Shown: piece by piece, positions 8,815-60,812 of the stretch
How positions within the stretch are numbered: the stretch's first letter is position 1
Layout: every line of letters begins with the position of its first letter
Source of the DNA: Escherichia phage EJP2
Direction: 5' to 3' (one strand)
DNA length: 64,000 nucleotides
Sequence record: OQ411014.1
Notes under the pieces: generated by a model
Seen by the model: the letters and a program-made list of their open reading frames with translations, nothing else
Told to the model about the DNA's origin: nothing
Databases searched by the model: none
Made by a program: the position numbers and the translations under genes

Positions 8815-8822
8815 TATAAATA
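8815..8822 (+). promoter_or_regulatory. T4-type late promoter motif TATAAATA
   Basis: Exact TATAAATA 33 bp upstream of ATG 8855; a gp55-like sigma factor is encoded in the window. Confidence 0.55.
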
Positions 8823-8854
8823 AGTAAAAGTTCATAAAAGAGGGGCTTATTAAA

Positions 8855-9363: not shown

Positions 9364-9972
9364 ATGGAAAACAAAATCGAACAACCAAGATTGTTTGTTA
9401 AAGGTCATGTGCTGATTACTGATGTTACTGACCCAGAAAACACAAAAGTAGTTTTGGATAAATCAAACGCAATCCATCCAGAAAACATGAGTCGTGCTAT
9501 TGCAAACGCTCTGGCAGCAAACGTAGATAGTGCTGGAGTAAGTTTAGGGGCTGTTTCTGAAATGCGTTTTGGTAATGGTGGTACTGTAGTGTTGAGTACT
9601 GGGCGTGTTACCTATAAATCCCCACGCGTCACTTCGTATGGTGGTTTGTATTCTGAAACTTATTCTAAAAAGATTAACCCACGTATTAATACTGGTGTTG
9701 ATGAACAATATAATAACATCACGACCGTTCACATTCCCGGACAGGCATATACTGACTTGGTATGCTTATGTACATTAGGTTTAAGTGAGCCGTCAGACCA
9801 AGCTGTTAGTTCCAGTACTTCAATGGATGGAACTTATGTATTTGATGAACTCGGTCTATATACTGACGGTACTAGTGGTTTACCACTATCACATATTATT
9901 TTCCATCCAGTTGAGAAAAGTGCAAACCGTATTCTACAAGTAAAATATACTGTGCGTGTTCAACTTCAATAA
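9364..9972 (+). CDS. Hypothetical protein (202 aa)
   Basis: ORF with AAGGAAAA RBS, tightly packed after the previous gene. Confidence 0.55.
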   Translation: MENKIEQPRLFVKGHVLITDVTDPENTKVVLDKSNAIHPENMSRAIANALAANVDSAGVSLGAVSEMRFGNGGTVVLSTGRVTYKSPRVTSYGGLYSETYSKKINPRINTGVDEQYNNITTVHIPGQAYTDLVCLCTLGLSEPSDQAVSSSTSMDGTYVFDELGLYTDGTSGLPLSHIIFHPVEKSANRILQVKYTVRVQLQ

Positions 9973-9981
9973 GGATAAGAT

Positions 9982-16846: not shown

Positions 16847-16875
16847 AAAAAGGAGCCTTTCGGCTCCTTTTTTTT
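16847..16875. terminator. Bidirectional hairpin terminator after the ClpA-like gene
   Basis: AAAAAGGAGCC-TTTC-GGCTCCTTTTTTTT; also terminates the convergent 3337-aa gene. Confidence 0.75.
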
Positions 16876-19800: not shown

Positions 19801-22800
19801 ATGAACCTTTGAGTAGTGCTAATGCTGCACGAACGTTTTTCTCATTATTCGTTAATGCACCATCGCTGTTGTATTGTGAGTAGTTGTTATAAAGAACATT
19901 GTTCAATTGTACAGTGCTCTTCTCACGACCAACTGCTACCCATTGAACTTGACCACGTGATTCAGTTTTTTCATATAATGTCCAGACACCATCGGCATCG
20001 GTAATACGAATCAAATCACCAATCTGGTAGTTTTTAGTGTTAGCAATTTGAATGCTTGTTTCTTCGGTATATTCTGATTCTTCATCAAAACCAACACTAT
20101 ACCAATCAGCATAATCCCAGTAGGTTGTCATATCTAATGAAGTACCAAGCTGATCAATATAGTCAGTTTGCTTAATCATAGTATGTTGACCTTCACCACG
20201 ACTCTCTAGAGTGATAGTTACCGCAGTACCAGAAGTACTTGGGCTATTCATCAAGTGAATGTAACCGTTGTCGTCGTAATGCACAAAGTACACACTAGTA
20301 CGGTTTAGTGGTGCTGGTAATGTACCATTAGTATTAACCAGTACTGCGTCATTCTCTACAAATTTGTTTTCATTTGTGGTGATAACCAATTCGTTGTTAT
20401 AAGTTAGTACTTTAAATCCAACTTCGTTCGGGTTCACAGCGTCAGTCTTCTTAAAGAAGATATCATCCATTACTACAGTGTCAGTTGTCATGTTAATATG
20501 CTTGTACACATTGTTTGCTGAATCAACAAACGTCCTACGAGCTTCTATAACGTCCATAAACCATGTTTTGTTTGCACCTAGACCCAAGTCAGTACTTGGA
20601 TAAGATAACTCAACCACGTTGCCGTTTAGGAGGGTTTCTTGAGACTCCAAAGAGTTCCATAGAGAATTCCAAATAGCTGGGTTGAAGTTGTATTCTTCAC
20701 CTTCTTTACAAAGTTGATACTGTTCATGTTTAATAACATCATCATTATTTTCTTTGTAAGAAACAGTCAATATACTCTTATCATCGTTAATGTCGTGCTG
20801 CATATTAGATAGAATAAAAGAATTCTCATCTACTGGGGAGAACCAAGGAACTCCGAGTACTGAAGGATCAGCAATAATGCGAGCAATCTCATTACAAGAT
20901 TTGGTACGATGCTTAACATGTGGAGTATAGATTGTATCTTTAACCCAGAAGTAATACATTGGCACATAAGTGTTAGTACTAGCATCATATTCAACAAAAT
21001 AAGAATAGTTTTCAGTAACTGCTGTACCGGATGGTAGGTAAGTGGTCTGGCCTTTATTTTGTTTTTGTTGTTCAGTGCAATACTGATCCCAGTTATATGG
21101 TTCTACTGGCGATTTAACCCATTCGTACACATCAATACTACCATGTGGAAGGATTTTACCCCAATTATAACGCTTATATTCTAGAGTCTTATTTACATCG
21201 ACGTTCCCATTAGCATCAAGGATTGGACGAGTATAATCCATGAAGAATGCAGAAGAAGTATCCCACCAAACTTCACCAACTTTATCAGAACCCCAAGCTA
21301 GTAATGTTTCACCATCACTATTGTAGGTTGCTGGGTCACGAGTAGAGGTATATGAAACGTTTGACATTGCCACACCAGGGATAATACCATTGATTGGGTC
21401 ATATGTGTTAATATACATCTCAACAACGTTAGTCATGGAGTTGTAGGTACTTGGGCGGTCGAACAACGAACTGTTAGGTGCTAAGTACTCATATTTTTTC
21501 TGAACGTATGCATCTTTCGCTGCTTTAGTACTGAAACGTGGAACGTATTTGTACATTACAGGTTCTGCACCACTGAAATCAAAATCTACAGTACTGTCGA
21601 ATGCAACAACTATAGTATTTGCAGTAACACCATAGAATTGTGTTTCTTCACGTAGGAAATCAGGCATATAACCGGACTCATCAACGAAGAAGTAAGTATC
21701 ACCATTACTTAGTGTAGATGAAGAACTTAATTCTAGTGTTACTTTCTGTGCTGCGTATTGGTCATCAGTAATAATTGGAGTAATTTTCTTCAAAGTGATA
21801 TTGGTTTTAACAATATCATAGATATTCCAGTTATCATTAGAATCCTGAAGAACCCATACAGACGATGGTAGTGTATTGTAATCGGAAGTATACTTAGAAC
21901 GGTCTTCATAAGCAGTTTGTAGGTCTAGAGTAGTGAATGACACTTCATCTAGAGTTACAGGGCCGATATTTGGCAACTGAATGTTGTCAGATGCACCTTT
22001 ACGCATTGGGAAAGAGAACAAACCATGTGGACGAGTAATCCAACGTGGGTCTACACCTGTTTTACCAAAATAAACGATGTTATTTGCAGTACTGTCCACA
22101 GTTGCATTCTGGTCGAATGTAACCAATTGTGGTTGTTGAGCAAATTCGTTGTTAATTAGTTGGAACTGTAGGTTCTTTTTGCCATATACGTTGCCATATT
22201 CACCGATTTTGAAAGCCCACTCTTGTAGTGCTTTGTAACCTTCGGTATTATAGGTTTTTGATACACGTAGAACACGTTCGAGTACTTGATTAGTACCTTT
22301 GTCACGGATGAAGCCTTTATAGAAATCAACGCGGGCTGGTTCTGATGTGATCATTTCGTTTAAGTAACTTCTGGACTGGTATCCAATTAAATGATTCGCT
22401 AGGGAACGCAATTGAACATCAGATACTGGATTTTCAGTGTCATAATAGTGTCTAAAGTCATCTACTAGTTTTTCAAAGTCAGGTAGTGTGCCAGTTTCGA
22501 GGATAATAAAGCCAGGTGCTTCCAAACGACCATTCCATGAGCCAGTTACATAACCGTACATACGAATCAATTCTTGAATTGAACCATAAGTTGGAATATA
22601 GATGTTATCACCAAAAATAGTTTTATCATCAAACACGATAGCATGTTCATAAGCGATTAAGCTCAAACGAATAAGAGCAATACGCTTGTTGTATTCTTCT
22701 AAACTACGAACAGTGATGATGTTACCGATACGTGCAGTTTCAATTTCATACGGACGAATACCTGTATTATTATCATCTAGTAGAGTCCATAGACCACCAC

Positions 22801-25800
22801 TATATTGTGCAACTGATTCAACAGAACCAAAAGACGCACCGAATTTAACACTTTTAGTACTTGGAGAACAAGAAATATATTCACCACGAGCTAGAGCAGT
22901 CTGACTCCAGTTCAAATAATCCTTCGCAATTTGATTCCAGTTTAGAGTGTTGCCGTTCTCGTCAGTTTCTTCGAAAATAAACCCAACACGTTCCAAATAT
23001 TCACCATAAGCACACAAGAAAGTGTAAACTTCTTGGAAAGAATTCAGTACTGTACCGTATTCAATACTTTGAACTTTATCAGTGTACTCATTGTAATGAA
23101 CTACTGTACGATTACCTTCACGAATAGTAACACGCTTACCATTACGGTTAGGAGTTAAGTATTTGAAGGATGCACCAACTAGATCATAACCAGTAATCTG
23201 ATATCCAGTGCCGTTCCATGTGATATCAACAGCACTCATTGATTCTTCACGGATGGAAGAGCTACGAACTAGACCGATATGTTGGTTTTCTTGAGAAATT
23301 AGACCGAATGTATCAGAATAAAAACTCAATTGGTCTTCTTTACTGAATCCACCAAGTTTATGACCCACATTAATATGTGAACTACGTAAAACGTCACCGT
23401 ACTTAGTAGTAATATCCATTTGTTTGTACTGTAGGTGATCAGTTATGAACATTTGGTATCCTAGGATACGGCTATTGTTCTCATTGTTCACTAGTGTAGT
23501 ACTGTTTAGGTTCAAACGTTGGTTGGTTTCACCAAATAGGAACTGTTCTTTACCACGATAAACTGTTTTAAGAGTACTACCACGAGTATCATAGAAATAG
23601 TTTGCAAACTGTGCTGGTTTAGCACGATATAGTAGTAGAGCTTCATCATATGGGAACATTGCAGTGTTGCGGTAAGTGAATTCAATATCACCCATGTCAC
23701 CATAAGACCACGGTTCTGCACGATGATCAAGGGAACCAGCCACTAAACCTAGAACTTCTGGAGCAATCAGTTCAAATGTGCGAATTTCTTCACCATCTGC
23801 TGTGAAATTACCAGTACCTTTAATAACGAATGGCTGTTTACCAAAACGTTTGTATTTTGCATAAGTTCCTTTGTTCTTACCATATAGAATTGTACCAGTA
23901 CTAGCGTCACCTTTAATACTACCAACATCCCATAGACCACTTGGTACTAATTGGTTGTTTTCATCAATAACTTCAGCTTCATACACGTATACAACTTCAG
24001 TTGGGTCTTCACCAATACGAATTTTGGTTGGTTCATATTCTTGGTTCCACCAAGATGGGCGTTGAGCAAAACCTAACATTTCCCACGGGTGGGTTGCTGG
24101 GCGATATGTACCGAACATGTCACTATAAATTGCTCTCCATGAGCCACGTGCTGGAATATCGGTAACAACGCCATCAACAACATAAGTTGTTCCTTTGTAG
24201 TTCCAAGTTAACCAGTTATTTGCATCATAATCATGTGTACTGTTATCAATACCGTTAGTTGCGATGAAGTTAGTGTAACCACGTAGTAGAAGTGTTTGCT
24301 TCTCGTCACGAGTATAGTCAGTTTCAGTAAAATAAGGAGTCGGGAATAGATCACTCTGAACAAGTTCAGGTACATAATCAATATCTTTGAAATCATTATC
24401 AATACTGTTGAAAATACGGTTTTCTAGTTCGTAAATCACATCATCCATACGACCTACACCATTCAGTACTTTATACGCCTTGGTAATTGTACCAGTATGG
24501 CTTACGTTATAACAACCTAGGTCACGACCAGCATACATATAAGTCGCTTTCTGTGGAGCGTACGCTTTTAGAATACCAATAAACTGTGGAGTCGGTGGAA
24601 TGAAGGCACGAATGTTAGAACTGGAACTACCCATCGCATCAATGAAGAATGGGAAAGTATTATTCTTACCAACGTTAATATTATTAAGAATTGCGTCAAC
24701 AATATTAGATGCACTGTTGGAAGTGAATGCAGATGGATCTTCATTGTACATATTAACCATTTGAGTATTGAATTTGTTCATGAAACGGAAGTATTCAGAT
24801 TGCATAAATTCAATTGCAGCAAATAGGTCAATATTTTCATTCGCTGTGTTAATCATTAGTGGAAGCATAGATGCTTCGTTCTGGATAATCTTAGTACCGA
24901 CAGAGTTATCAACTAGACCTTTAGCAAGACGTTCTTCGTAGTCGTTAAAATCATTTACTGTACCAGTAGTGATGTTACGTTGAATAATTTCTTGGAAATG
25001 TGGTGTATATAGACTTTGATCAATATAAGTGATAAAATCATTATACGGGTTGTTCTGTAGGTTGATTGGAATTTCATAAGAACCCAAGTTAGTATCTGGT
25101 GTTTGTACAGGACTGTAAGTTCTGATTTCAACAATGCTATCATCGGTTAGTTTGATAGAACTATCTAGAGTTATAGATTCAACAAGACCATTTTTATCCA
25201 ATTTAGTACTGAACTTTGTGGTTTCTTCTGTACCAACACGCACATAAAGTACATCTGTGCTTGATGATAGGTTGACACGTTGAGCTAGTTCAAATGTGTG
25301 GTTAAAAAGTTCAGATGGAACGTAGTCATTACCAGCTTCACGATGCCAGTCCATAAAAGTACTGTTATCTGCTTTGTAATATTTGAATGTTGCATCAATA
25401 TCCATTACATAAGCGTACATATTTTCAATTGGATTTTGGAAATTATTCATCTCTTGTACAGTACTGAATACATTGTACATAGAGGTTTTGGTCATAGCAG
25501 GAACTTGACGAACATACTGTTTGGTAAATTCATCGCTACGATCCCAGTCTGATTTTAGATTTACTGAACCGTCAGAACCAATTACGTTATAGTAATACAA
25601 ACCAGAAATTTCAGTAGTTGCTCCAACTTTATCATAATCATAACGAGTACTCTGAATGAAGTTCTCGAAAACATAATAGTTGTAAGAGTTCAATTCAACG
25701 TTAGTGTTATAGATTTTATTGTAGTTGTAGTCAAAGTTAACTTTAAGGCCAAATAGTGGGGAACCTTTAAAAGAACTACTTGGGTAAATTTGAGGATCGT

Positions 25801-26887
25801 TTAGTTTAGTCCCGTTGCGATCATACAATTGGAACAATGGGGTACTGTTAATACCTGATTTAACTTGTGTACGAATCCATGCTGAACCATTCCAGTACAT
25901 AGAAGTGTTTTCATAAACTTGACCAGATTTAATTAGAACAACGTCACCACGCAAAGGTTCACCCGTTGGGCGTAGCTCAGATTCTTCATCTTCATCAAGA
26001 GCAAGACCATATACACGAGTGCCAGCTTCGGTTTGTTTAATGTAAACTTTATAGATTCTGTTATTTTCACCGCTGTTACCGATACTAGTGAATAGAATAC
26101 GGTCACCAGCTTTAAGAATAAAACCATCAACACGAATTTCATCAGAAACTGATTTCTGTACAATATCTTCTGGTTTGATGGAGTCTGATAGGTACGTGAC
26201 TACACCACGGAAAGTAGTTCCGTAATTCATTAGTTCGATGTTTTTGTTATATTCAATGATTGGTGCTTGAGCATGAGTGAAGCGTTCATCTTGAGTCATG
26301 TCATCAGTTAGTACTGTGCCGTCTGGTAATTCTTGACCTACAGTAAACCAATAGTTTTGTAGTGACCATGTGTTACCGTTATCAGCACCACGTTCCATAA
26401 CGATATAATCCGGTGCAATACCAAATTCGTTATTATTGTCCCAAACATAAGAACTGTAGTTCATCATTTTATTTGGGTTGATTGGTGGAGTCCATGAATA
26501 AAACTTACCATCAAATAGGCGTGACTGGTTATCAGTTAAGGAACCATAATGGGACATATATCCTACTAGGTCTTCATAGAACTGCATAGAGCGAACGCTT
26601 GTGTCGGTATTACGAGACACATAAACTGGTGATAGTTGGTAGTCTTGGCGTTGTTGAGAACTTTCTTTGATGAAAATCTTTCCAGCCGCTGACGGAGTAC
26701 CACGGTCACCTATATACCCGTCAACAATTTCTTGTTCGGCAGGGTTGAACCATTGCTGGATTACATCATCACAAAAAGTTTGGATCTGTTCTAGACCTTG
26801 CATCCACTCAGGCAATCTTTTAATGAATAGCTTTTTTTGTACAGCATCTGCCGCTAGGGTTGGCTGGAACTTAAATTCATTCGACAT
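16874..26887 (-). CDS. Giant virion structural protein (~3337 aa), probable baseplate or tail-fibre component
   Basis: Uninterrupted ~10-kb ORF. Track start is 26908; the third ATG (MSNEF) at 26887 has a GGAGAAT RBS and an exact late motif at 26923-26930. Lies next to the gp6-like gene. Confidence 0.7.
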   Translation of the reverse strand: MSNEFKFQPTLAADAVQKKLFIKRLPEWMQGLEQIQTFCDDVIQQWFNPAEQEIVDGYIGDRGTPSAAGKIFIKESSQQRQDYQLSPVYVSRNTDTSVRSMQFYEDLVGYMSHYGSLTDNQSRLFDGKFYSWTPPINPNKMMNYSSYVWDNNNEFGIAPDYIVMERGADNGNTWSLQNYWFTVGQELPDGTVLTDDMTQDERFTHAQAPIIEYNKNIELMNYGTTFRGVVTYLSDSIKPEDIVQKSVSDEIRVDGFILKAGDRILFTSIGNSGENNRIYKVYIKQTEAGTRVYGLALDEDEESELRPTGEPLRGDVVLIKSGQVYENTSMYWNGSAWIRTQVKSGINSTPLFQLYDRNGTKLNDPQIYPSSSFKGSPLFGLKVNFDYNYNKIYNTNVELNSYNYYVFENFIQSTRYDYDKVGATTEISGLYYYNVIGSDGSVNLKSDWDRSDEFTKQYVRQVPAMTKTSMYNVFSTVQEMNNFQNPIENMYAYVMDIDATFKYYKADNSTFMDWHREAGNDYVPSELFNHTFELAQRVNLSSSTDVLYVRVGTEETTKFSTKLDKNGLVESITLDSSIKLTDDSIVEIRTYSPVQTPDTNLGSYEIPINLQNNPYNDFITYIDQSLYTPHFQEIIQRNITTGTVNDFNDYEERLAKGLVDNSVGTKIIQNEASMLPLMINTANENIDLFAAIEFMQSEYFRFMNKFNTQMVNMYNEDPSAFTSNSASNIVDAILNNINVGKNNTFPFFIDAMGSSSSNIRAFIPPTPQFIGILKAYAPQKATYMYAGRDLGCYNVSHTGTITKAYKVLNGVGRMDDVIYELENRIFNSIDNDFKDIDYVPELVQSDLFPTPYFTETDYTRDEKQTLLLRGYTNFIATNGIDNSTHDYDANNWLTWNYKGTTYVVDGVVTDIPARGSWRAIYSDMFGTYRPATHPWEMLGFAQRPSWWNQEYEPTKIRIGEDPTEVVYVYEAEVIDENNQLVPSGLWDVGSIKGDASTGTILYGKNKGTYAKYKRFGKQPFVIKGTGNFTADGEEIRTFELIAPEVLGLVAGSLDHRAEPWSYGDMGDIEFTYRNTAMFPYDEALLLYRAKPAQFANYFYDTRGSTLKTVYRGKEQFLFGETNQRLNLNSTTLVNNENNSRILGYQMFITDHLQYKQMDITTKYGDVLRSSHINVGHKLGGFSKEDQLSFYSDTFGLISQENQHIGLVRSSSIREESMSAVDITWNGTGYQITGYDLVGASFKYLTPNRNGKRVTIREGNRTVVHYNEYTDKVQSIEYGTVLNSFQEVYTFLCAYGEYLERVGFIFEETDENGNTLNWNQIAKDYLNWSQTALARGEYISCSPSTKSVKFGASFGSVESVAQYSGGLWTLLDDNNTGIRPYEIETARIGNIITVRSLEEYNKRIALIRLSLIAYEHAIVFDDKTIFGDNIYIPTYGSIQELIRMYGYVTGSWNGRLEAPGFIILETGTLPDFEKLVDDFRHYYDTENPVSDVQLRSLANHLIGYQSRSYLNEMITSEPARVDFYKGFIRDKGTNQVLERVLRVSKTYNTEGYKALQEWAFKIGEYGNVYGKKNLQFQLINNEFAQQPQLVTFDQNATVDSTANNIVYFGKTGVDPRWITRPHGLFSFPMRKGASDNIQLPNIGPVTLDEVSFTTLDLQTAYEDRSKYTSDYNTLPSSVWVLQDSNDNWNIYDIVKTNITLKKITPIITDDQYAAQKVTLELSSSSTLSNGDTYFFVDESGYMPDFLREETQFYGVTANTIVVAFDSTVDFDFSGAEPVMYKYVPRFSTKAAKDAYVQKKYEYLAPNSSLFDRPSTYNSMTNVVEMYINTYDPINGIIPGVAMSNVSYTSTRDPATYNSDGETLLAWGSDKVGEVWWDTSSAFFMDYTRPILDANGNVDVNKTLEYKRYNWGKILPHGSIDVYEWVKSPVEPYNWDQYCTEQQKQNKGQTTYLPSGTAVTENYSYFVEYDASTNTYVPMYYFWVKDTIYTPHVKHRTKSCNEIARIIADPSVLGVPWFSPVDENSFILSNMQHDINDDKSILTVSYKENNDDVIKHEQYQLCKEGEEYNFNPAIWNSLWNSLESQETLLNGNVVELSYPSTDLGLGANKTWFMDVIEARRTFVDSANNVYKHINMTTDTVVMDDIFFKKTDAVNPNEVGFKVLTYNNELVITTNENKFVENDAVLVNTNGTLPAPLNRTSVYFVHYDDNGYIHLMNSPSTSGTAVTITLESRGEGQHTMIKQTDYIDQLGTSLDMTTYWDYADWYSVGFDEESEYTEETSIQIANTKNYQIGDLIRITDADGVWTLYEKTESRGQVQWVAVGREKSTVQLNNVLYNNYSQYNSDGALTNNEKNVRAALALLKGSFNSVQSTVVFDMVKYVHTEQKVVDWVFKTSYIYIIGLDQSLQQRSTTDGNLINEIVQYFEEVKPYRTKIRSQIEQKTSDEDEINGLLNDLDPNGYIYVDGAWVKTQKDIWDYEYAQFNDVSQKWEIVGSLPNNFVLPNRRFQEIDVILDFDNFQCKPSSDMADITTLENVNKKYQSNTGDFLVKGSHYMLQRYAYTFPEINNAELETLIMNGITQYYPNMNISSGLKYGLDQMYATLINDVEASDEFTATLNRVIAEAEEKSESVSEVRNYVQYNTLSNRLKLTTSKSDETIGSEVGCPFKGLVLSDNPSTRLPFGFSASNGENYGYISYSKPMYDLIYDQVKEANPGFSHIEILEYMEYEYGLYTWKYVIPETDDNPESNRFYTDAVHVLSALRGTYNPDETDPYSAAEKVLENLDVDAYAVVLMPRKYVFLMSETTPGKDYSIPSNVGIEEYMEEVYITDGDMVRLSQPSLDDVPEDDKNPLYSDFLQIMSGLNKEVFFDDKNAFDNLALESQTKTIINSVVGVANSTNDPVFVDISELNPSKRDMAQLRFTVDGYGFDTSVQTQLRDQGNFNIEGYIVQNPYNRSEALVSIPRYDVALEYMNRSILEKNEIQYSYRIKNVTSVSGVVELDGDNDFVVGETVAVFVPDNSDYAVAINDGSWKTVLSVATIKDANRPKLFKVTSVSGNTVTIGGLTFTSTYNSTDESLYNQNKPTSINIVRVTSFNDPEFSAGGITRYTNNRSYRVDALDYDVFYDTSLIGGNYEPELTTNDYDVWYSTNETQTLEDGTVVDNGYYLPVYGKGVLSELVRTKMTDALEISVFEYDVAEINPTANNGSWIYSKPLVDGVYINTNSTVTVVYKSMFDSFTHVSQPKMASTMTYENGIATMPGVVPDDIILSNAEQMLVRKNNFVVRAYNGTVQNYYEKDVTYTSTGLNLGNTNEIAVYGDGYEPIPLSTYSDSLDIAPVILIGLIK

Positions 26888-26922
26888 TTTATTCTCCATA
26901 AAATTCATTTCTTCATTTGTTT

Positions 26923-51454: not shown

Positions 51455-52630
51455 ATGTCACAACTATTAACTGAATCTAAATGGGCACAAGTTAAGAGCA
51501 AACTAACCGAAGGTCTAAAAGACAACCGTAAACTAGTAATGGAATCTGTTCTAGAAAACCATCGTAAAGTAATGCTAAACGAAAACGCTTCTGGCGGTGC
51601 AACTTCTGCTGGTAACATTGCTACCCTAAACAAAGTAATTCTACCAATCATGCGTCGTGTAATGCCAACCGTTATCGCTAACGAAATCATCGGTGTTCAA
51701 CCAATGTCTGGCCCAGTTGGTCAAATCCATACCCTACGTGTTCAATATGCTGATAACGCACCAGGCGTTGTAGCTGGTGAAGAAATGCTATCCCCATACA
51801 AAATCGCTAAGTCCTATACTGGTGATGTGAATGGCGATAACGAAAATCCACGTGCTGCTCCTACTAGTCAACTAGAAGGTACTATGGGTCGTCGCGTTAA
51901 CATCCGTATCCTACGTGAAACCGTTGAAGCGAAATCTCGTCGTCTATCCGCTCGTTGGACTGTTGAATCTGCACAAGATGCACAATCTCAACACGGTATC
52001 GATATCGAAGCTGAACTAATGGCTGCTATCGCTCAAGAAGTTACTACTGAAATCGACCAAGAGCTACTACACAAACTACGTGCTCTACCTGGTGCTGCTG
52101 CTGTAACTTATGACCAATCCAAAGTTACTGGTGTTGCTACTTTCGTTGGTGATGAACATGCTGCTCTAGCTACTCTAATCAACCGTCAAGCGAACGAAGT
52201 TGCTCGTCGTACCAAACGTGGTGCTGCAAACTGGGCTGTTGTTTCCCCAACCGCACTAACCATTCTACAGTCTGCAACTACTTCTAGCTTTGCTCGTACC
52301 ACCGAAGGTACTTTCGAAGCACCAACTAACGTTAAGTTTGTTGGCGTACTAAACAGTACTATGCGTATCTATGTTGATACCTATGCAGATGACAGTACTG
52401 ATGTACTAATCGGTTACAAAGGTAATGCTGAAACTGATGCTGGCGTGTTCTACTGCCCGTACATCCCACTAATGGCTTCCGGTACTGTAATGGACCCTAA
52501 CACTGGGGAACTCGTAACAACATTCTTAACCAGATATGGCTACGTACAGTTGACCGACAGTACCAGTTCTCTTGGTAACGCGGCTGACTACTACAGCAAA
52601 ATTGCTATCCGCAACGTAACCTTCATGTAA
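51455..52630 (+). CDS. 23: Major capsid protein, gp23-like (~391 aa)
   Basis: Three blocks align to T4 gp23: ILPIMRRVMPTVIANEIIGVQPMSGPVGQIHTLRVQY; VNIRILRETVEAKSRRLSARWTVESAQD; MRIYVDTYADDSTDVLIGYKGNAETDAGVFYCPYIPL. Start at ATG 51455 with GGAGAT RBS. Confidence 0.9.
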   Translation: MSQLLTESKWAQVKSKLTEGLKDNRKLVMESVLENHRKVMLNENASGGATSAGNIATLNKVILPIMRRVMPTVIANEIIGVQPMSGPVGQIHTLRVQYADNAPGVVAGEEMLSPYKIAKSYTGDVNGDNENPRAAPTSQLEGTMGRRVNIRILRETVEAKSRRLSARWTVESAQDAQSQHGIDIEAELMAAIAQEVTTEIDQELLHKLRALPGAAAVTYDQSKVTGVATFVGDEHAALATLINRQANEVARRTKRGAANWAVVSPTALTILQSATTSSFARTTEGTFEAPTNVKFVGVLNSTMRIYVDTYADDSTDVLIGYKGNAETDAGVFYCPYIPLMASGTVMDPNTGELVTTFLTRYGYVQLTDSTSSLGNAADYYSKIAIRNVTFM

Positions 52631-52646
52631 TATGTTTTAAAACCTT

Positions 52647-52679
52647 AAAAGGGACTCTTGACGAGTCCCTTTTCTTTTA
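52647..52679 (+). terminator. Rho-independent terminator after the major capsid gene
   Basis: AAAGGGACTC-TTGAC-GAGTCCCTTTT then CTTTTATT. Confidence 0.75.
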
Positions 52680-52686
52680 TTATAAT
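52658..52686 (+). promoter_or_regulatory. Near-consensus sigma70 promoter (TTGACG-N17-TATAAT) for the homing-endonuclease-like gene
   Basis: TTGACG 52658-52663 lies inside the capsid-gene terminator stem; TATAAT 52681-52686. Confidence 0.5.
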
Positions 52687-52728: not shown

Positions 52729-53823
52729 ATGCCTAAATCATCAATGACTCAACAAGAATTCGAAACTAAAATGACCGAGAAGTATGGTAAAGTAGATTTC
52801 AGTACTATGACGTTTAAGTTGAGTAAAACTACAATCAATTGTCCTAAGTGTGGAAACGCAAATACCAAATCTGCAATCCGACACATTGAATGTACTTGTG
52901 CAAACTGTTTTTCCAATATGTCACAACGTTCTAGTAATGAAATTTTCATCGAAAAAGTAGAAAACAAATTCGGAGCAGGTAAGTTCAAATTCGACAAACT
53001 AAATTATCATAACGCCAAAACTCCGGTTGAATTGTTCTGCACTGAACATAATGCATATTTCACCATTGTCCCAAATAAAATGCTCACTGGACATGGTTGT
53101 AATGTATGTAATAAAAATGAAGCACATACTACTGAAAGTTTCATTACAATTGCGAAAAAGAATTATGGCACTACCACGTTTGACTTCACTAATACAGTGT
53201 ATGTTAACCGCCAAACTAAAGTATCAATCCATTGTAACGAAGGTAATCACGAATGGTTAGTTAACCCAGCAACTATAATCGCCGGAATAAACCAATGTGG
53301 TGTCTGTAAACGCAAATCTGGTATGACAACGGAACGTTTTATTAGTGATGCAAACTCTGTACATGATAATGCATACACATATGAGAACACTGTTTATAAA
53401 AGAAGTGAATGTGTCGTAGATATCACATGTCCAAAGCATGGAAACTTTACACAATCACCAAAGTCACACCTTCGTGGTCGTGGATGTCCAAAGTGTGGTA
53501 AGTATGGTTATCAACAAACACAGCCAGGTTACTTCTATATTCAGAAGTTGACGAATGAGAACAAAACTGTGTATAAGTACGGAATCACTGGTGACATGAA
53601 ACGTCGCGTCCAAGAACAATCCCGTGATTCTGTATTTGAACACGAAGTGCTTGTTGAAATGTACTTTGAAGACGGAAAGAAACCAATGGCATTAGAATCA
53701 CTGTTGAAGAACTATATTGAGAGTGGAGTCACCAGTACTGAAGAATTGCCATCAGGATTTTCGGAAACCTTTGATGAGAAGTACTTAGATGAAGTACTAT
53801 CCATAGTAAATAACTTTAGGTAA
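52729..53823 (+). CDS. Homing-endonuclease-like protein: N-terminal zinc-ribbon repeats plus C-terminal T5orf172 (GIY-YIG-related) domain
   Basis: Four repeats of C..C / HG-F...P..H-x-G-x-GCP-x-C type; C-terminal GYFYIQKL...VYKYGITGDMKRRVQE block; own near-consensus sigma70 promoter at 52658-52686. Confidence 0.6.
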   Translation: MPKSSMTQQEFETKMTEKYGKVDFSTMTFKLSKTTINCPKCGNANTKSAIRHIECTCANCFSNMSQRSSNEIFIEKVENKFGAGKFKFDKLNYHNAKTPVELFCTEHNAYFTIVPNKMLTGHGCNVCNKNEAHTTESFITIAKKNYGTTTFDFTNTVYVNRQTKVSIHCNEGNHEWLVNPATIIAGINQCGVCKRKSGMTTERFISDANSVHDNAYTYENTVYKRSECVVDITCPKHGNFTQSPKSHLRGRGCPKCGKYGYQQTQPGYFYIQKLTNENKTVYKYGITGDMKRRVQEQSRDSVFEHEVLVEMYFEDGKKPMALESLLKNYIESGVTSTEELPSGFSETFDEKYLDEVLSIVNNFR

Positions 53824-53843
53824 TAACAGAAGGACAAGAATTC

Positions 53844-54236
53844 ATGGATGAAAACACAATAGTAACGGTATATCGATTCGGAAAGGAAGTTTACCTAAAG
53901 AACAGTACTGGAAACTTTGAATCTCTCATTGAAGGATACCCATTAGTAGCATATAATGCAGATACAGAAGAGCTATACCAGTATCAGGATGCACATAGAT
54001 ACAGTAAAGGTAGTTTTGTGCAGGATATGCTACAGATTGACGGCACTGAGATGAGTTATAAGATGTACTTAGACGTCTACAAGGCTGAAATGAACAAGAA
54101 ACACATCTCTGCACCAGTACTGGCAGAGATTTACGAAAATCAACACCAAAATCCGCACTTAACTGATGATTTGAAGCCAGTTAATGCGTTTGACAAGCTA
54201 AGTAAGCTCGGATTGAACTTCAAAATCAGTAGATAA
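53844..54236 (+). CDS. Hypothetical protein (130 aa)
   Basis: ORF with GGACAAGAA RBS-like sequence between the two endonuclease-like genes. Confidence 0.45.
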   Translation: MDENTIVTVYRFGKEVYLKNSTGNFESLIEGYPLVAYNADTEELYQYQDAHRYSKGSFVQDMLQIDGTEMSYKMYLDVYKAEMNKKHISAPVLAEIYENQHQNPHLTDDLKPVNAFDKLSKLGLNFKISR

Positions 54237-54239
54237 ATA
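54232..54239 (+). promoter_or_regulatory. Late-promoter-like motif GATAAATA (T5orf172 gene)
   Basis: 7/8 match, 38 bp upstream of ATG 54277. Confidence 0.3.
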
Positions 54240-54276
54240 ATCCCAGAGTACAATTCAGTACTATGGGAGAGATTAA

Positions 54277-54582
54277 ATGCAAATATGTTACGTAATCACC
54301 AATAAAGCATGGCCTGAGTGGGTAAAAATTGGATTCACATCTAAATCAGAGATGAAATCCAGACTAAGTACATACCAGACGGGTTCACCATTTAGAGATT
54401 ATGAAGTATATCATGAAGTACTATTTGATGATGCGAAATCCGCTGAAAAAGAAGTACATAAGCGTTTAAAACAAATGAATGCAACTAGATCACCAGGGAC
54501 TGAGTGGTTTAAAATGAGTAAAAAAATAGCAGCCAATATGATTGATTCAGTTCTAGATGATATAGAGAACGACTTGCTATAA
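54277..54582 (+). CDS. Stand-alone T5orf172-domain protein (101 aa), homing-endonuclease-like
   Basis: ICYVITNKAWPEWVKIGFT...RLSTYQTGSPF...EKEVHKRL...GTEWF matches the T5orf172 pattern; GGGAGA RBS. Confidence 0.6.
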   Translation: MQICYVITNKAWPEWVKIGFTSKSEMKSRLSTYQTGSPFRDYEVYHEVLFDDAKSAEKEVHKRLKQMNATRSPGTEWFKMSKKIAANMIDSVLDDIENDLL

Positions 54583-54585
54583 ATA
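54578..54585 (+). promoter_or_regulatory. T4-type late promoter motif TATAAATA (tail fibre gene)
   Basis: Exact TATAAATA 38 bp upstream of ATG 54623. Confidence 0.55.
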
Positions 54586-54593
54586 TCAATATA

Positions 54594-54622
54594 TTGACAT
54601 ACGATAAAAAGGATTTTATAAT
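54594..54622 (+). promoter_or_regulatory. Perfect consensus sigma70 promoter (TTGACA-N17-TATAAT) abutting the tail-fibre start codon
   Basis: TTGACA 54594-54599, TATAAT 54617-54622, ATG at 54623; the predicted start site would fall inside the ORF, so function is uncertain. Confidence 0.35.
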
Positions 54623-56332
54623 ATGAGTATTAGTTTTAACCATCCTTCCAACATTGTAACGAGTACGAGTACTCTTGAGATTACAGCATTGGGTGGAACA
54701 GCTAGTAATCCTAAACCAATACGTTTGAATGCATCATCGTTGATTGTTCCGGTTAAACCTCTTCCAGCAGGTGAAATGGGTGCATTAGTATTCGACAATT
54801 CAACCCATACTATGAAGTATCATGACGGTACTAGTTGGGTAGAACTATTGGCTAAAGATGTAATACTACAACCAATCATTAATGATATTGCAACCATTAA
54901 TACTAAATTAGGAACTAAAGTAGATAGTGTTACTTACTCATCTAGTGCCATCCCAAGTGCATCTGTGAGTGGTACAACATTAAACATTATCTTCCCAACT
55001 GGTAGTACTGGCGGTACTGGCCCAACAGGGTTGTATACTTCCCTTAAACCTGGTACAATAACCCACTATGCATTAACATCAGGTCAAAACGCAGCATCTA
55101 TTCGTGAACAGATGTCTGGTGTTTCCGGTGGTCAATCAGGCCGCAACGGAACTTCAGGATCTCCATACAAAACTTCCGATGGTTGGTGTTTCGCTGATGG
55201 ATTATACTGGACATGGGCTGGTGAAAATGGTACAGTAACAAAACAGGTTCCGAACTTAAACCAAGATGCTTATTTGAAACCAATGACTGTTTCTGGTGTA
55301 ACACAAATCGCATCTGTTATTGCTGGTTCAGCACAAATTGGTCAAACTGCATTATCTATTGCTCAATTGCCACCACACAGCTTCACTGTGAGTGGACAAA
55401 CAAGCACAGCGGGTGAGCACATCCACTCCCAACAACTTAGAGGTAATGACCGTTCAGGACACACTGCAATCACTTCTTCTGCTGATGCAGGTATCCCAAC
55501 AGTAATTACTAACGTTAACGCTGCTGGTAATCACATCCATACATTCTCTGGTTCATCCAATACTATTGGTTCTGGTCAGGGTCATGGACATACAATTTCA
55601 AATATTGATGTTAACCACTTTACTGTTGCTGTTTTATATAACATCGCAGAAGGTTCAGTTGCATTGAGTGAGAAAGTTGCAAGTACTAAGTACGTACTGA
55701 AAGCTGGAGACGTAATGACTGGTTCACTTACTATTGCCAACGCATCAATTCTTCGTGGTGATGACGCTTCTCTAGTCCAGTACTTCAGATATGCAAACAA
55801 CACAGAACGTGCAGCAATTTATCATTCATCTTCTAACAACACATTACGTTTACGTAGTAGTGGTGGCACAGAAGTAACGATTGCCAATAACGGTACTTTG
55901 TTCGCTAGTGCATTAACAGGTTCGTCTGGTAACATCAGCGGTACTTTAACAGCTAGTACTATTAGTGCAACTAACGGTACTTTCAGCGGTACTTTAACTG
56001 TTAACTATACCAATACATCTTCATTGAACGTAACAAGTCAATCTGCTGTAGTTGGTGGTAAGAACATTGTTCGCTCCATTAACGGTACTGGTGCTGATGG
56101 AAACGGTAACGTAACACTAACTCTAGGTGCTATCCAAAATATTAAACTTGGGCCACGCCGCCAAACTCCAAAAATGAAAGATGCTTCTTGGACGCATGTC
56201 GAAGCAGGTGGTTTATTGGATGGTGCTTGGATTTCTGTCAACGGTAGTTCAGGAACACACTTAGAAAGATTGAGTTATAGAATGGTTTCTGTTATGGTTA
56301 ACGGCGTATGGAAAACAATTGACGTTGAATAA
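54623..56332 (+). CDS. Tail fibre protein with His-rich tip (569 aa)
   Basis: N-terminal fibre motif (GALVFDNSTHTMKYHDGTSWVEL); His-rich HxH segment (HIHSQ...GNHIHTF...GQGHGHT) like metal-binding tips of T4-type fibres; exact TATAAATA at 54578-54585; followed by a chaperone-like gene. Confidence 0.7.
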   Translation: MSISFNHPSNIVTSTSTLEITALGGTASNPKPIRLNASSLIVPVKPLPAGEMGALVFDNSTHTMKYHDGTSWVELLAKDVILQPIINDIATINTKLGTKVDSVTYSSSAIPSASVSGTTLNIIFPTGSTGGTGPTGLYTSLKPGTITHYALTSGQNAASIREQMSGVSGGQSGRNGTSGSPYKTSDGWCFADGLYWTWAGENGTVTKQVPNLNQDAYLKPMTVSGVTQIASVIAGSAQIGQTALSIAQLPPHSFTVSGQTSTAGEHIHSQQLRGNDRSGHTAITSSADAGIPTVITNVNAAGNHIHTFSGSSNTIGSGQGHGHTISNIDVNHFTVAVLYNIAEGSVALSEKVASTKYVLKAGDVMTGSLTIANASILRGDDASLVQYFRYANNTERAAIYHSSSNNTLRLRSSGGTEVTIANNGTLFASALTGSSGNISGTLTASTISATNGTFSGTLTVNYTNTSSLNVTSQSAVVGGKNIVRSINGTGADGNGNVTLTLGAIQNIKLGPRRQTPKMKDASWTHVEAGGLLDGAWISVNGSSGTHLERLSYRMVSVMVNGVWKTIDVE

Positions 56333-56347
56333 TAATAGGAATATAGT

Positions 56348-56860
56348 ATGCTTAATCTGAAAAATTTCAAAAAGTACAAACCGGAAGGTATCATTGACGG
56401 TTTTATGTATCTTATATCAGAAGATGGGTTAGATTGGTATGAGGCACGTGAAATGTTCCAAGAAGATACAGTGAAGATTTTGTATGAGAATGACGGCACT
56501 ATTGTATGTGCCGACTACACGGCACTATTCATGCCCCCATTAGATTGTAGTATTGCTGAAATATACTATGACGGAAACTTGAATGATTTGTATGGGATGG
56601 TTTTCGATGGTGAAAAAGTAGTACCATACGATGAACCAAACTCTGAACGGATTGAGCGTTTAAAATCTGAGCAAAAGAATCTTAAAGTATCTGCAATCAA
56701 CGAACTGAATAACTTAAAAATGGCAATCGACCTTGATGTAGCAACCGAAGATGAAAAGAAACTCTTCCCAGTACTGAAGAGTTACATCATGAAACTATCC
56801 ACTTTCACTGATGATGATTTCACTGATAAACTGTTTGAATTTCCAGTTAAACCAGTTTAA
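56348..56860 (+). CDS. Tail fibre assembly chaperone, Tfa-like (170 aa)
   Basis: Immediately downstream of the fibre gene; C-terminal region (AINELNNLKMAIDLDVATEDEKKLFPVLKSYIMKL...FPVKPV) resembles the conserved Tfa C-terminus. Confidence 0.55.
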   Translation: MLNLKNFKKYKPEGIIDGFMYLISEDGLDWYEAREMFQEDTVKILYENDGTIVCADYTALFMPPLDCSIAEIYYDGNLNDLYGMVFDGEKVVPYDEPNSERIERLKSEQKNLKVSAINELNNLKMAIDLDVATEDEKKLFPVLKSYIMKLSTFTDDDFTDKLFEFPVKPV

Positions 56861-56869
56861 CAAAAAAAT

Positions 56870-56899
56870 ATGAGACAAATCGAAAACGTCTGATATAAT
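56870..56899 (+). promoter_or_regulatory. Sigma70-type promoter upstream of the 99-aa gene and DNA polymerase
   Basis: ATGAGA 56870-56875, TGATATAAT 56891-56899; followed by a 7-bp inverted repeat (GTCATCT...AGATGAC) around 56903-56927. Confidence 0.65.
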
Positions 56900-56956: not shown

Positions 56957-57256
56957 ATGGCTAAGAAACTCGAAAACAAAGTTGAACTACACGATCTAAA
57001 CGATGAACAACGTAAACGTCTAGGTGACGGCTTGACAAATGCTGTAGTTCAGCTAACATACCATAAGAGTGTAAAAGAGTCTTACAAAGAGTTTATCAAC
57101 AGCCTAGCTGATGAACTTGGTATTGATGCTGGAACTATTCGTGCAGCAGCAGCCCGTATGGAAAAAGGTGATTTCTTCGAGAAGGTTCGTAAGCAAGATG
57201 AAATCGAAACTATGCTACAAATCACTGGTAATCTACCAGCAGAAGATGACGAGTAA
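56957..57256 (+). CDS. Hypothetical early protein (99 aa)
   Basis: ORF downstream of sigma70-type promoter 56870-56899; GGAGAAAA RBS; terminator follows. Confidence 0.5.
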   Translation: MAKKLENKVELHDLNDEQRKRLGDGLTNAVVQLTYHKSVKESYKEFINSLADELGIDAGTIRAAAARMEKGDFFEKVRKQDEIETMLQITGNLPAEDDE

Positions 57257-60300: not shown

Positions 60301-60350
60301 TCAATGAGAAGAGTACACTAGCACTTGACAGTGGTTTCTTCGAGTGGTAA
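57339..60350 (+). CDS. 43: Family-B DNA polymerase, gp43-like (1003 aa)
   Basis: Exo I motif FFDIETD; polymerase motif C YGDTDSVYF; motif A-like region; size typical of T4-type polymerase; RBS AAGGAGA. Confidence 0.9.
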   Translation: MYVDGYMERKRGSEVLHVAERVNGKRVLRELDPVYEYYVESPYGTQKTIHGTMAEKFEFSTYRDMKASLERHAGCKIFESDCNVTFKTLAKRYMGKASPDLNVLFFDIETDFHEKFGYAPTHDPFNRVTAISLYQSWTGCDYVLTLPPASMSLIQAQEIVNELNAETNDENSKVILYTDEKEMFIEFFSLMQDADVLSGWNSEFYDIPYMINRTKKLFNEAMLAHWCLWNKKPVSREADNFGKVVVTYDLVGRVHLDYLALYKKHAGQVEQSYRLDDIAEKVTGENKVAYDGSLNKLYNEDYKMFLRYSKQDSILLKKIDEKMDFISLHNRLAHKECVLISTTMGSVALIDTSIINKAHKRGEVVFDKKNQDEVEVDDRYDFMGDDNDDGEEEKVAAKAAGAWVQDPVLGLVDFLGCTDFNSLYPTVLRSLGMSTECIIGQLRHDYTEAHLEKRVADQRAKSKSKAFEPDWTAAWHGLFASIEFTMVREKSQSLINVDLEDGSTFQATGEQLYELIFAEDSTIVLSANGTLFDKTKNGVIPEILTEWYSERKCQQKMVIDYKHMYSDGWELPSSSLDKIEAAMQNYTAGTEFYRTNLHDDDPVYLLRIALTNANYEDVAKLVVENGLVLKDGRLFCKKEDKDYFKKQSAFWKQNQQIRKILLNSLYGALLNKGSRFFDKRLGQSVTLTGRSMTKHMASRINEIVTGEYNHEGGCVIYGDTDSVYFSVAHYMKEQGFEFNLNRTEVVDLYVKIGDEMGENFYEFMNDSFNTGIEKGKLVGADLEMVGSRGLFLKKKRYAILKYWEDGFRKDENGEVGEIKAMGLEIKRSDTPKYIQNFLQSTLIALLVGESEDELRARVREFKCTFKDKPSHEKGAPRTVKKYTHHEEEYQKTGKCSVSHVLAAIQWNKLCGIYEDKTVPEATDGTKVIVCDLKPNPTGILKIGYPIDCVEYLPEWFLDLPFDDDKMEQSILTKKLNNIFGILDMDIGINEKSTLALDSGFFEW

Positions 60351-60361
60351 TATAAATGAAT

Positions 60362-60381
60362 GAACCCCAGAAATGGGGTTC
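60362..60381 (+). terminator. Hairpin after the DNA polymerase gene (no T-run)
   Basis: GAACCCC-AGAAAT-GGGGTTC; lacks a U-tract, so more likely a stability or processing hairpin. Confidence 0.3.
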
Positions 60382-60395
60382 GATAAGGATAAAAT

Positions 60396-60812
60396 ATGAA
60401 AAATATTTATGAACGTATTGGTGAAGCAATTCTACAAGGTACTAACAGCCTGTTCTTGGTATGTGACAGTACTGAAGTAGCGTTAGTCAAACGCAAATAC
60501 AATTCCATTGGTACAACCAATCTAAACGGTATTGTATACACCGTATTTGACTTACAGGACGAAGTATCTAATACAGACTCTGACGATTTATCAGAAATGT
60601 ACCGTATTCTTCCTGTATCGCCTTCTACGCAGCCAAACATTACACCTAGTCACAATCATTGGTATAGTCCAAATAACCCGTGGAACGACCCGTGGAATGA
60701 TTGGAATCGAATGAACCCTCTCACTACACCAGTAACACATCCATTCTGGGACAAATTTGGTACATGGTCTAGTACTACTGACTATGATGTGACTTACAAA
60801 GTAAAGAAATAA
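60396..60812 (+). CDS. Hypothetical protein (138 aa)
   Basis: ORF after the polymerase gene, with RBS-like AAGGATAAAATATG. Confidence 0.45.
   Translation: MKNIYERIGEAILQGTNSLFLVCDSTEVALVKRKYNSIGTTNLNGIVYTVFDLQDEVSNTDSDDLSEMYRILPVSPSTQPNITPSHNHWYSPNNPWNDPWNDWNRMNPLTTPVTHPFWDKFGTWSSTTDYDVTYKVKK

Follow-up and report, generated by a model that had tools for sequence, protein, structure and literature searches.

Between the major capsid protein (MCP) gene and the DNA polymerase gene of Escherichia phage EJP2 lie five genes, and the question is whether they travel as one mobile host-range cassette or are parts with separate histories. We studied this interval in a stretch of 64,000 nucleotides (nt) of the phage genome (OQ411014.1), here called the window, which is DNA of a RaK2/121Q/PBECO4-like jumbo myophage. 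The genes bordering the interval encode a Gp23-type MCP and a family-B DNA polymerase. An earlier note on this DNA had read the five open reading frames (ORFs) as an insert and a mobile host-range cassette, in which two T5orf172-type endonuclease genes flank a tail fibre gene and its chaperone gene and could promote the transfer of this linked receptor-binding module. All five ORFs are present exactly where the note placed them:

52729 to 53823, plus strand: predicted free-standing homing-endonuclease-type gene, 364 amino acids (aa), with four tandem zinc (Zn)-ribbon modules of ~63 aa and a C-terminal GIY-YIG/T5orf172 nuclease domain
53844 to 54236, plus strand: 130-aa ORF of PHROG 15724 (9e-25), function unknown; syntenic and fast-evolving, within the right-hand co-conversion zone
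54277 to 54582, plus strand: stand-alone 101-aa T5orf172 (GIY-YIG-fold) protein, nuclease core only; single-copy core gene of the clade
54623 to 56120, plus strand: fibre N-terminal part and shaft, residues 1-499; conserved, putative orthologue of RaK2 gp098, with HxH at residues 266, 304 and 321 and GDVMTGSL at 362
56121 to 56332, plus strand: fibre distal end, residues ~500-569; variable, of the Tfa-dependent class ending in NGVWKTIDVE; left half of the exchangeable unit
56348 to 56860, plus strand: tail-fibre assembly chaperone (Tfa, Caudo_TAP), which makes up the right half of the exchange unit

Our analysis indicates that the interval is very probably a composite, made of an ancestral fixed module, a homing-endonuclease-type gene and a separate host-range exchange unit. 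Two elements of the cassette idea were thus retained, the mobility of the large endonuclease gene and the exchange of the fibre tip together with Tfa, while the single linked five-gene unit was not.

Gene order in relatives

We compared annotated loci from 14 GenBank phages (121Q, PBECO4, Hallingskeid, CBB, GAP32, XbC2, Kaldavass, PHA46, fENko-Kae01, SE_PL, Munch, JNE01, Turkey5, and RaK2) and added 34 IMG/VR loci. The GenBank loci share the order MCP, zero to two variable genes, a hypothetical protein of ~120-170 aa, a T5orf172 protein of ~101 aa, the fibre, Tfa or none, a hypothetical protein of ~99 aa, and DNA polymerase. Eight further GenBank loci and 14 Logan/ENA loci agree with this order. 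The small T5orf172 gene and the fibre gene followed the MCP gene in 33 of the 33 loci that had an MCP of at least 86% identity and enough downstream DNA. Genes two to five (the 130-aa ORF, the small T5orf172 gene, the fibre gene and, where present, the chaperone gene) occupy the same place in the same order in Asteriusvirus, Mimasvirus, the Munch/SE_PL/fENko group, Hallingskeid, Kaldavass, and metagenomic relatives. Conserved position and order across relatives was what the earlier note had named as speaking against a mobile insert, and this is largely what the comparison gave: genes two to five are fixed and the slot of the large endonuclease gene is variable. Since four of the five keep their synteny throughout the close relatives, there is no five-gene insert and no five-gene mobile cassette.

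RaK2 has the same layout, but in the position of the small T5orf172 gene, which the window has and which is not recognisable in RaK2, it carries an unrelated 244-aa ORF, ORF097 (positions 9498-10232 of its locus, L013). We considered ORF097 as a diverged small T5orf172 protein and found no support from Pfam, PHROG or tblastn. Therefore, Alcyoneusvirus either lacks the small T5orf172 gene or has another gene in its place. In the outgroup locus L034 (MCP 73%), the MCP gene is followed by three unrelated small ORFs, the ~99-aa gene and the polymerase gene, and the module of the small T5orf172 gene and the fibre gene is missing. This absence is a point in favour of a mobile cassette, but it also indicates that the module is clade-specific, with a single gain or loss far back in time, and not recently mobile.

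The small T5orf172 gene was correctly named by the earlier note (Pfam T5orf172, 7e-13). Its product has the nuclease fold, and within its 101 aa, which make up the nuclease core, no DNA-recognition domain of its own was found. The gene is present in one copy at a constant position in all 33 of these loci. The protein is 77-88% identical across genera and 99-100% identical between siblings, and it is under purifying selection. The gene belongs to the conserved core and is not a homing element. The 130-aa ORF before it also keeps its position, with 28-53% aa identity to relatives.

A homing-endonuclease-type gene behind the capsid gene

The large gene begins directly downstream of the MCP transcription unit, and the features of this slot are as follows:

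52647 to 52683, plus strand: intrinsic terminator of the MCP gene from a terminator scan, hairpin AAAAGGGACTC...GAGTCCCTTTT plus T-run; the variable slot starts directly 3' of it
52658 to 52686, plus strand: sigma-70-like promoter match from a consensus scan, TTGACG-17-TATAAT, 11/12; the -35 lies in the terminator loop and the match is 43 nt 5' of the endonuclease ATG
52729 to 52917, plus strand: ZnF1, predicted Zn-ribbon (CapR/DUF723/DUF4379-like) DNA-binding module
52918 to 53115, plus strand: ZnF2, predicted module of the same kind
53116 to 53319, plus strand: ZnF3, predicted module of the same kind
53320 to 53502, plus strand: ZnF4, predicted module of the same kind
53503 to 53823, plus strand: C-terminal GIY-YIG/T5orf172 nuclease domain

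The description of the product as a zinc-ribbon/T5orf172 protein was confirmed by a match to PHROG 681 'endonuclease' (4.7e-73). Its Pfam matches are all sub-threshold (T5orf172, 17.0 bits with a cut-off of 20; MUG113, 21.2 with a cut-off of 22.3; DUF723; DUF4379), and PF05265 is precomputed on homologues of the protein. Each Zn module has the pattern C-x2-C/H ... C-x2-C, and a structure model has four repeated helix/beta-hairpin/helix units. The C-terminal part is a nuclease domain of the GIY-YIG superfamily (T5orf172), in which F269, Y270, Y282, K283, G285, R293, H305, and E346 are near-invariant in an alignment of 31 homologues. The ratio of non-synonymous to synonymous substitution (dN/dS) is ~0.11 against 121Q. 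The family occurs in 852 phage records, often in multiple copies. A close kinship between this nuclease domain and the small T5orf172 protein was also considered and not adopted: the motifs align, but the hhalign match is weak (single sequence, E 0.008, probability 5%; family profile, E 0.02, probability 2.4%).

The slot is polymorphic between nearly identical genomes. Directly after the MCP terminator hairpin, 1,194 bp containing the gene in 121Q correspond to 46 bp in PBECO4, and the flanks of the two phages are 98.4-98.7% identical. Clean presence/absence was likewise found in Ecwhy_1/fEgEco12 and E9.1/SD-15_S21 (flanks 98-100%). The gene is absent from Hallingskeid, CBB, Kaldavass, XbC2, and the loci L015, L058 and L064, and in SE_PL, Turkey5, JNE01 and RaK2 the slot holds other alleles of the same protein class with 28-36% identity. 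N-truncated forms without ZnF1 occur in other lineages. The terminator hairpin is kept in all relatives, and the similarity between genomes with and without the gene breaks right after it. Pairs of -35/-10 elements of a similar kind precede the endonuclease gene in 121Q, UB, Ecwhy_1, fENko, SE_PL, and Turkey5, and the match at 52658-52686 may be the promoter of the gene.

The DNA-recognition part changes fastest. Among the window and its siblings L057 (a contig from Logan SRR25245152) and L066, ZnF1 and the nuclease domain are 97-100% identical, and ZnF3 and ZnF4 are only 39-82% identical. This variation is module shuffling, as reported for the T5orf172 class in a survey of these enzymes (PMC10448857). 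In summary, the large gene shows presence/absence and allele-replacement polymorphism with co-conversion-like tracts, and judging from sequence it is a mobile, selfish, free-standing gene of the homing-endonuclease type, with a hot spot just after the MCP terminator and a presumed cleavage activity.

Two further ORFs were seen in this position. In SE_PL (gp143, L007:4045-4668) and 7t3, a second slot ORF of 207 aa without a Pfam or PHROG match lies next to a divergent CapR/T5orf172-type endonuclease gene. In L046 (MCP 68%), a 263-aa ORF directly 3' of the MCP gene (8308-9099) has an HNH-type-looking motif by eye (HLDHIYSK...N...N), without Pfam or profile support. If this motif is real, the post-MCP position draws other endonuclease classes in other lineages.

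Co-conversion-like tracts and codon 360

Synonymous differences accumulate at the 3' end of the MCP gene, next to the slot:

52375 to 52567, plus strand: 3' part of the MCP gene with dense synonymous variation between siblings; co-conversion-like zone and predicted endonuclease target region
52532 to 52534, plus strand: MCP codon Arg360, AGA; the allele associated with the 121Q-type ('A-type') endonuclease and a candidate polymorphism for immunity or the target site

Between the window and L057 there are 26 mismatches in 52375-52567 and no amino-acid change, and the sequence upstream is ~100% identical. In 121Q and PBECO4, the last ~320 nt of the MCP gene together with its 3' untranslated region hold 37 of the 45 left-flank mismatches. 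All 39 differences within the MCP gene of this pair are synonymous, 33 of them in the last 316 nt. To the right, 48 of 73 mismatches lie within ~620 nt of the slot; they are concentrated in the 130-aa gene and end inside the small T5orf172 gene. JNE01/Turkey5 and fENko/SE_PL have a similar synonymous clustering at the MCP 3' end, and in L066 both the MCP 3' haplotype and the endonuclease centre differ from those of the window and L057. The MCP 3' haplotypes of these three siblings are made up of synonymous variants at nt 921-957 and 1026-1164.

One codon follows the endonuclease type. Nucleotides 1078 and 1080 of the MCP gene, both in codon Arg360, were the only columns that split the A-type carriers from all others in 14 genomes. 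In the enlarged set, all A-type carriers have AGR (AGA or AGG), and the non-carriers have CGN with two exceptions (Fisher p = 2.6e-7 for a 10/0/2/24 table, kinship ignored). The window and 121Q have AGA at this codon, and PBECO4 and Hallingskeid have CGT. The twelve A-type carriers are the window, L057, L066, 121Q, UB, Turkey3, A4, fENko, Munch, L018, Ecwhy_1, and E9.1. The exceptional non-carriers with AGR, PHA46 and fEgEco12, have flanks 99-100% identical to those of carriers, and thus they are likely to be secondary losses of the endonuclease. At the sites of the MCP 3' end that differ between 121Q and PBECO4, the window sides with 121Q at 16 and with PBECO4 at 13 of 33, and only the codon-360 columns are consistently linked.

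From these patterns we infer that codon 360 lies near the site at which the enzyme recognises or cuts the MCP gene, and that AGR confers immunity. In a mixed infection, the large enzyme would cut genomes that lack the gene or carry another allele, at the 3' end of the MCP gene. The predicted cut would be near Arg360, where carriers have AGR and the others CGN. Repair from the endonuclease-bearing genome would copy in the gene and a few hundred bases on each side, and the central Zn-finger modules would reshuffle rapidly. Two points weigh against this interpretation. The codon-360 association amounts to ~4 independent lineage contrasts and could reflect hitch-hiking of the donor haplotype rather than immunity, and recombination started by something other than the large endonuclease could in principle account for the clustering of synonymous changes.

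The latter point leads to the alternative that fares best among those considered, which we nevertheless regard as unlikely: the slot and the fibre tip would be sites generally prone to recombination or indels (intergenic, AT-rich DNA in one case, a gene under diversifying selection in the other), and the endonuclease-like gene a passive passenger. Indels unrelated to nucleases do occur nearby, such as the 207-aa ORF of SE_PL and a 169-aa ORF in L066-L069, and PHA46 has lost both the endonuclease gene and the fibre tip through plain deletions (both described below). However, all intact slot occupants from six lineages belong to one class, Zn-finger plus T5orf172, and even the ORF of L046 in the same position is HNH-like by eye, though without confirmation from profile searches. 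Moreover, the tracts of purely synonymous changes extend into a gene under strong constraint and fade with increasing distance from the slot, and the Arg360 codon family follows the endonuclease type.

A slightly poorer prospect is that the large protein is a domesticated, CapR-like DNA-binding regulator of capsid or late genes, with its variation due to relaxed or diversifying selection. The large gene adjoins the capsid gene, and the same-slot alleles of SE_PL and Turkey5 match the Pfam CapR homology domain (6.9e-11 and 1.1e-10). CapR itself is a domesticated T5orf172-family repressor of the capsid operon (PMC8096241, PMC10448857). A regulator of this kind is difficult to reconcile with the full GIY-YIG-fold domain that is kept here, with Y270, Y282, K283, G285, R293 and E346 among its near-invariant residues, or with clean presence/absence between genomes 98-99% identical. 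Many phages of the clade do without the gene, and repair-mediated co-conversion typically leaves synonymous tracts such as those in the flanks. The homing-endonuclease-type gene thus remains the preferred reading of the large gene.

The fibre tip and its chaperone

The fifth gene was rightly called a Tfa-like chaperone in the earlier note (PF02413, 2.4e-9, 37.9 bits with a cut-off of 22.1; PHROG 136, 1.3e-33). For the fourth gene, the tail-fibre assignment stood (PHROG 13229, 2e-200) and the His-rich tip did not. The positions of the HxH and GDxMxGxL motifs are kept in 14 fibres from all lineages, including RaK2 gp098, and thus the HxH motifs are in the conserved shaft and not in the tip. We also considered a metal-binding HxH needle at the tip like that of T4 gp37 and rejected it: in a fibre of 569 residues, HxH stands at 266, 304 and 321, upstream of GDVMTGSL (362) and ~180-230 residues ahead of the variable end. 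The fibre sequence had no match in the PDB at E ≤ 1.

The fibre aligns with RaK2 gp098 at 46-70% identity in five segments, with partial coverage (27-33%) of residues 241-350 and 461-569. From this homology along most of its length and its position, it appears to be the orthologue of gp098. In RaK2, gp098 functions as a secondary receptor-binding protein of the baseplate, required for infection and located outside the long fibres, according to antibody inhibition, immunogold labelling and adsorption assays (PMC10253068). By orthology, the window fibre would also be a secondary receptor-binding protein of the baseplate. The orthologue in fENko-Kae01 is annotated as found in virions by liquid chromatography-tandem mass spectrometry (LC-MS/MS).

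The shaft (residues 1-499) is 98-100% identical to those of L057 and L066. Between the window and L057, this identity collapses at ~56121, with 3 mismatches per 60 nt before this point and 25-28 per 60 nt after it. The divergent patch extends from 56121 to ~56900 and covers fibre residues ~500-569 and all of Tfa. The two Tfa proteins are 40% identical in a backbone that is ~100% identical. The tip and Tfa of L066, by comparison, are those of the window (97-100%). Among 14 fibres, ends of the '(N/D)GxW' type always occur with Tfa and ends of the 'YWxAxG' type never do; the L058 fibre, which belongs to the latter class, matches Pfam Gp53-like_C (4e-16). These patterns define fibre residues ~500-569 plus Tfa as an exchange unit of 0.78 kb, whose left boundary is inside the fibre gene at about codon 500. 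The unit would be swapped by ordinary homologous recombination, with crossovers inside the fibre shaft and downstream of tfa, and it probably affects host range. Such tip/Tfa exchange is familiar modular tail-fibre evolution, and both variable parts of the interval are ordinary phage biology.

The earlier note had suggested a comparison of the tip with fibres of unrelated phages. The best GenBank phage matches of the tip (51-56%) and of Tfa (46-47%) were both from Asteriusvirus, and a search of 5.8 billion proteins with Tfa returned its own lineage at 99%, followed by matches at 46% and at 29% or less. Since there is no close relative outside the own lineage, we see no sign of a recent import of the tip and Tfa from an unrelated phage.

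Right after the Tfa stop codon, L066 (6514-7243) and L067-L069 have an extra 169-aa ORF on a ~620-bp indel with a terminator-like hairpin. The corresponding point in the window is ~56861-56870, and the window and L070 are without this ORF, which makes it a third presence/absence polymorphism in the MCP-polymerase interval. As a candidate for a 3' flanking endonuclease, the ORF was rejected, with no Pfam or PHROG match and no nuclease signature. At the other end of the fibre gene, a 12/12 sigma-70 consensus (TTGACA-17-TATAAT, 54594-54622) ends one base before the fibre ATG. At the equivalent place, relatives instead have ATAAATAT-like sequence, a late-promoter-like motif after the stop codon of the small T5orf172 gene. 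The consensus was not taken as a functional promoter because it is not conserved in relatives.

Two independent hot spots

The comparison with L057 separates the two variable regions. L057 is ~100% identical to the window in the protease, scaffold and MCP genes, the 130-aa gene, the small T5orf172 gene, fibre residues 1-499, the ~99-aa gene and the polymerase gene, and it differs in two sharply bounded patches. The first comprises MCP positions 52375-52567 and endonuclease residues ~101-260, and the second is the tip/Tfa patch described above. L066 is ~100% identical to the window apart from the MCP 3' end and ZnF3-4 of the endonuclease. The endonuclease state thus changes without a change of tip in window/L066, and it also does so in 121Q/PBECO4. 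Ecwhy_1/fEgEco12 and E9.1/SD-15_S21 are consistent with this as far as the loci reach, ~830 nt into the fibre gene. In sibling genomes, the stretch between the two hot spots is 98-100% identical, and the co-conversion tracts from the slot stop inside the small T5orf172 gene, short of the fibre gene. Variation at the slot is independent of that at the fibre tip and Tfa. Some room is left for occasional joint events, as both hot spots differ together in JNE01/Turkey5, fENko/SE_PL, fENko/PHA46, and window/L057.

PHA46 and fENko-Kae01 (loci L005 and L006) are 99.6-99.9% identical, and PHA46 (L005 2729-3143 and 4746-4760) differs by plain deletions. The first has removed the endonuclease gene and most of the 130-aa gene. 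After the second, which took the fibre tip and the greater part of Tfa, the fibre has 421 aa and Tfa is reduced to a remnant of 54 aa. Either both losses are real or the assembly is at fault.

A link between the nucleases and the fibre could still come from the small T5orf172 protein. As a domesticated homing nuclease, it would cut or nick near the fibre gene and so stimulate the replacement of the tip and Tfa in mixed infections; this, or an arms race between ZnF3-4 and the MCP gene, seems improbable to us as an account of the interval. If the reading of the small protein were true, it would be a phage-encoded device for targeted host-range diversification. A weaker variant is that competing jumbo phages may be engaged in an arms race of specificity and immunity, with hypervariable ZnF3-4 against synonymous MCP targets including Arg360 AGR/CGN.

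The least credible alternative is the single mobile host-range cassette, with both T5orf172 nucleases driving the transfer of the fibre and chaperone genes linked to them: endonuclease-bracketed islands with essential cargo have been proposed in other phages (PMC10448857) and both variable parts differ in the four near-identical genome pairs named above, but both T5orf172-type genes are 5' of the fibre gene, so that it is not flanked as had been claimed, nothing nuclease-like follows tfa before the ~99-aa gene and the polymerase gene, genes two to five are syntenic with a single-copy small T5orf172 gene under purifying selection, the tip-swap boundary is inside the fibre gene while the tracts from the slot end before it, the slot switches without the tip, and in every comparison conservation is lower in the fibre and Tfa than in the MCP and polymerase on either side, the opposite of what such an island predicts. 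The composite of a fixed module, a homing-endonuclease-type gene and a separate tip/Tfa unit accounts better for these data. Its fixed module, the 130-aa gene, the small T5orf172 gene and the gp098-type baseplate fibre, is common to the whole enterobacterial RaK2-like clade in this position, RaK2 itself being without a recognisable small T5orf172 gene.

Neighbouring genes and other observations

The right edge of the variable interval is a backbone gene:

56957 to 57256, plus strand: 99-aa gene of PHROG 12534, always 5' of the DNA polymerase gene

It precedes the polymerase gene in all relatives, including the outgroup L034. In the phage collection, the nearest relative is Erwinia phage Hallingskeid, with which a backbone segment of 24 kb aligns over 74% of its length at 78% DNA identity. 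The proteins are 97% (MCP) and 87-88% (polymerase) identical. As the earlier note had stated, no gp24-like vertex gene is present: phmmer (E<0.01) found no second gp23/gp24-like ORF across the window. The five proteins and the MCP had only self-matches among all window ORFs, and thus the window contains neither a gp24-like gene nor a second copy of either nuclease gene. The main fibre cluster is indeed elsewhere, at the left end of the window, where genes for tail, sheath and baseplate accompany one for a fibre-like protein of 1869 aa. A single ORF of 3,344 aa (16874-26908, minus strand) also lies among genes of the tail and baseplate.

Two start sites were revised. The MCP gene probably starts at ATG 51455 (391 aa, MSQLLTESKW...), which matches all relatives, and not at the GTG 51398 of the ORF finder. 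For the scaffold-like protein, the GTG 50217 of the ORF finder is upstream of the start in relatives, and the true start is likely to be ATG 50256 (MSKLDKFL...). Just 3' of the polymerase gene, a 138-aa ORF (60396-60812) is 90-95% identical between the window and L057/L066 (patch 60310-60810). The polymerase and clamp-like genes around it are 99-100% identical in the same siblings. It is another local patch of divergence. In L034 (10334-12712), the polymerase ORF runs from the YGD(S/T) motif into intein-looking sequence ('...VVYGDSVTADTLIDTNQGKITIEELY...'), which suggests an intein or endonuclease insertion in the active-site motif.

Comparison with known systems

T5orf172 endonuclease genes with repeated CapR/DUF723/DUF4379 Zn fingers often adjoin capsid genes, according to the survey by Barth, Dunham and Seed (2023, PMC10448857). 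The large gene resembles the enzymes of ICP1-like, T5-like and other phages described there in its 'beads on a string' Zn fingers with a C-terminal T5orf172/GIY-YIG nuclease, its place next to the MCP gene, the turnover of alleles in one slot, and the shuffling of DNA-binding repeats. Unlike them, its nuclease domain is sub-threshold in Pfam, and its nuclease role is predicted. The linked polymorphism at MCP codon 360 and the hypervariability of ZnF3-4 among siblings that are otherwise ~100% identical are specific to this locus. The main text of the survey makes no mention of RaK2-like or jumbo phages, and the jumbo-phage genome papers examined make none of a post-MCP slot. Therefore, this particular system appears to be undescribed, while its kind is known.

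The locus also shares features with the free-standing GIY-YIG and HNH endonuclease genes of the Seg and Mob type in T4, namely an intergenic, self-contained gene beside a conserved essential gene and co-conversion tracts of a few hundred bp on both sides. T4 SegG, as Liu et al. (2003, J Mol Biol 334:13) are said to have shown, cleaves the neighbouring gene away from its own insertion site, leading to marker exclusion and co-conversion. Similarly, the cleavage site predicted here from sequence is inside the neighbouring gene, ~150-200 nt from the insertion point. The T4 Seg and Tev enzymes bind DNA through helix-turn-helix and minor-groove modules, whereas the window endonuclease would bind through its predicted Zn-ribbon repeats.

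The fibre distal domain and Tfa are known to swap as units in P2 (H/G), Mu (S/U), lambda (stf/tfa), and T4-type phages (gp37/gp38). As in these modules, the chaperone gene of the window is directly 3' of the fibre gene, tip and chaperone vary in concert, and both are exchanged jointly, one crossover falling within the fibre gene. Two differences are that the window fibre would be a secondary receptor-binding protein of a jumbo-phage baseplate, encoded off the main fibre cluster, and that the alternative state is a chaperone-less Gp53-like_C end, not merely another Tfa-dependent tip. RaK2 gp098 is homologous to the window fibre over most of its length, has the same MCP-polymerase position, and shares the HxH and GDxMxGxL shaft motifs. 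It has a 'YWQAIGR'-type C-terminus and no Tfa, whereas the window fibre has the Tfa-dependent '(N/D)GxW'-type end.

For genome annotation, a fibre gene beside nuclease genes and off the main cluster is not by itself a mobile cassette. For phage engineering, these jumbo phages, which are studied for therapy, would have a natural swap unit for host range in fibre residues ~500-569 together with Tfa, or in a Gp53-like end without a chaperone. For the biology of homing endonucleases, the slot offers a well-sampled natural system in jumbo phages of E. coli, Salmonella, Klebsiella and Erwinia, with plus, minus and allele-swapped isolates whose flanks are 98-100% identical. It combines a concrete predicted target, the region of MCP codon 360, with fast-evolving Zn fingers, and therefore the evolution of specificity in T5orf172-type enzymes is directly testable here.

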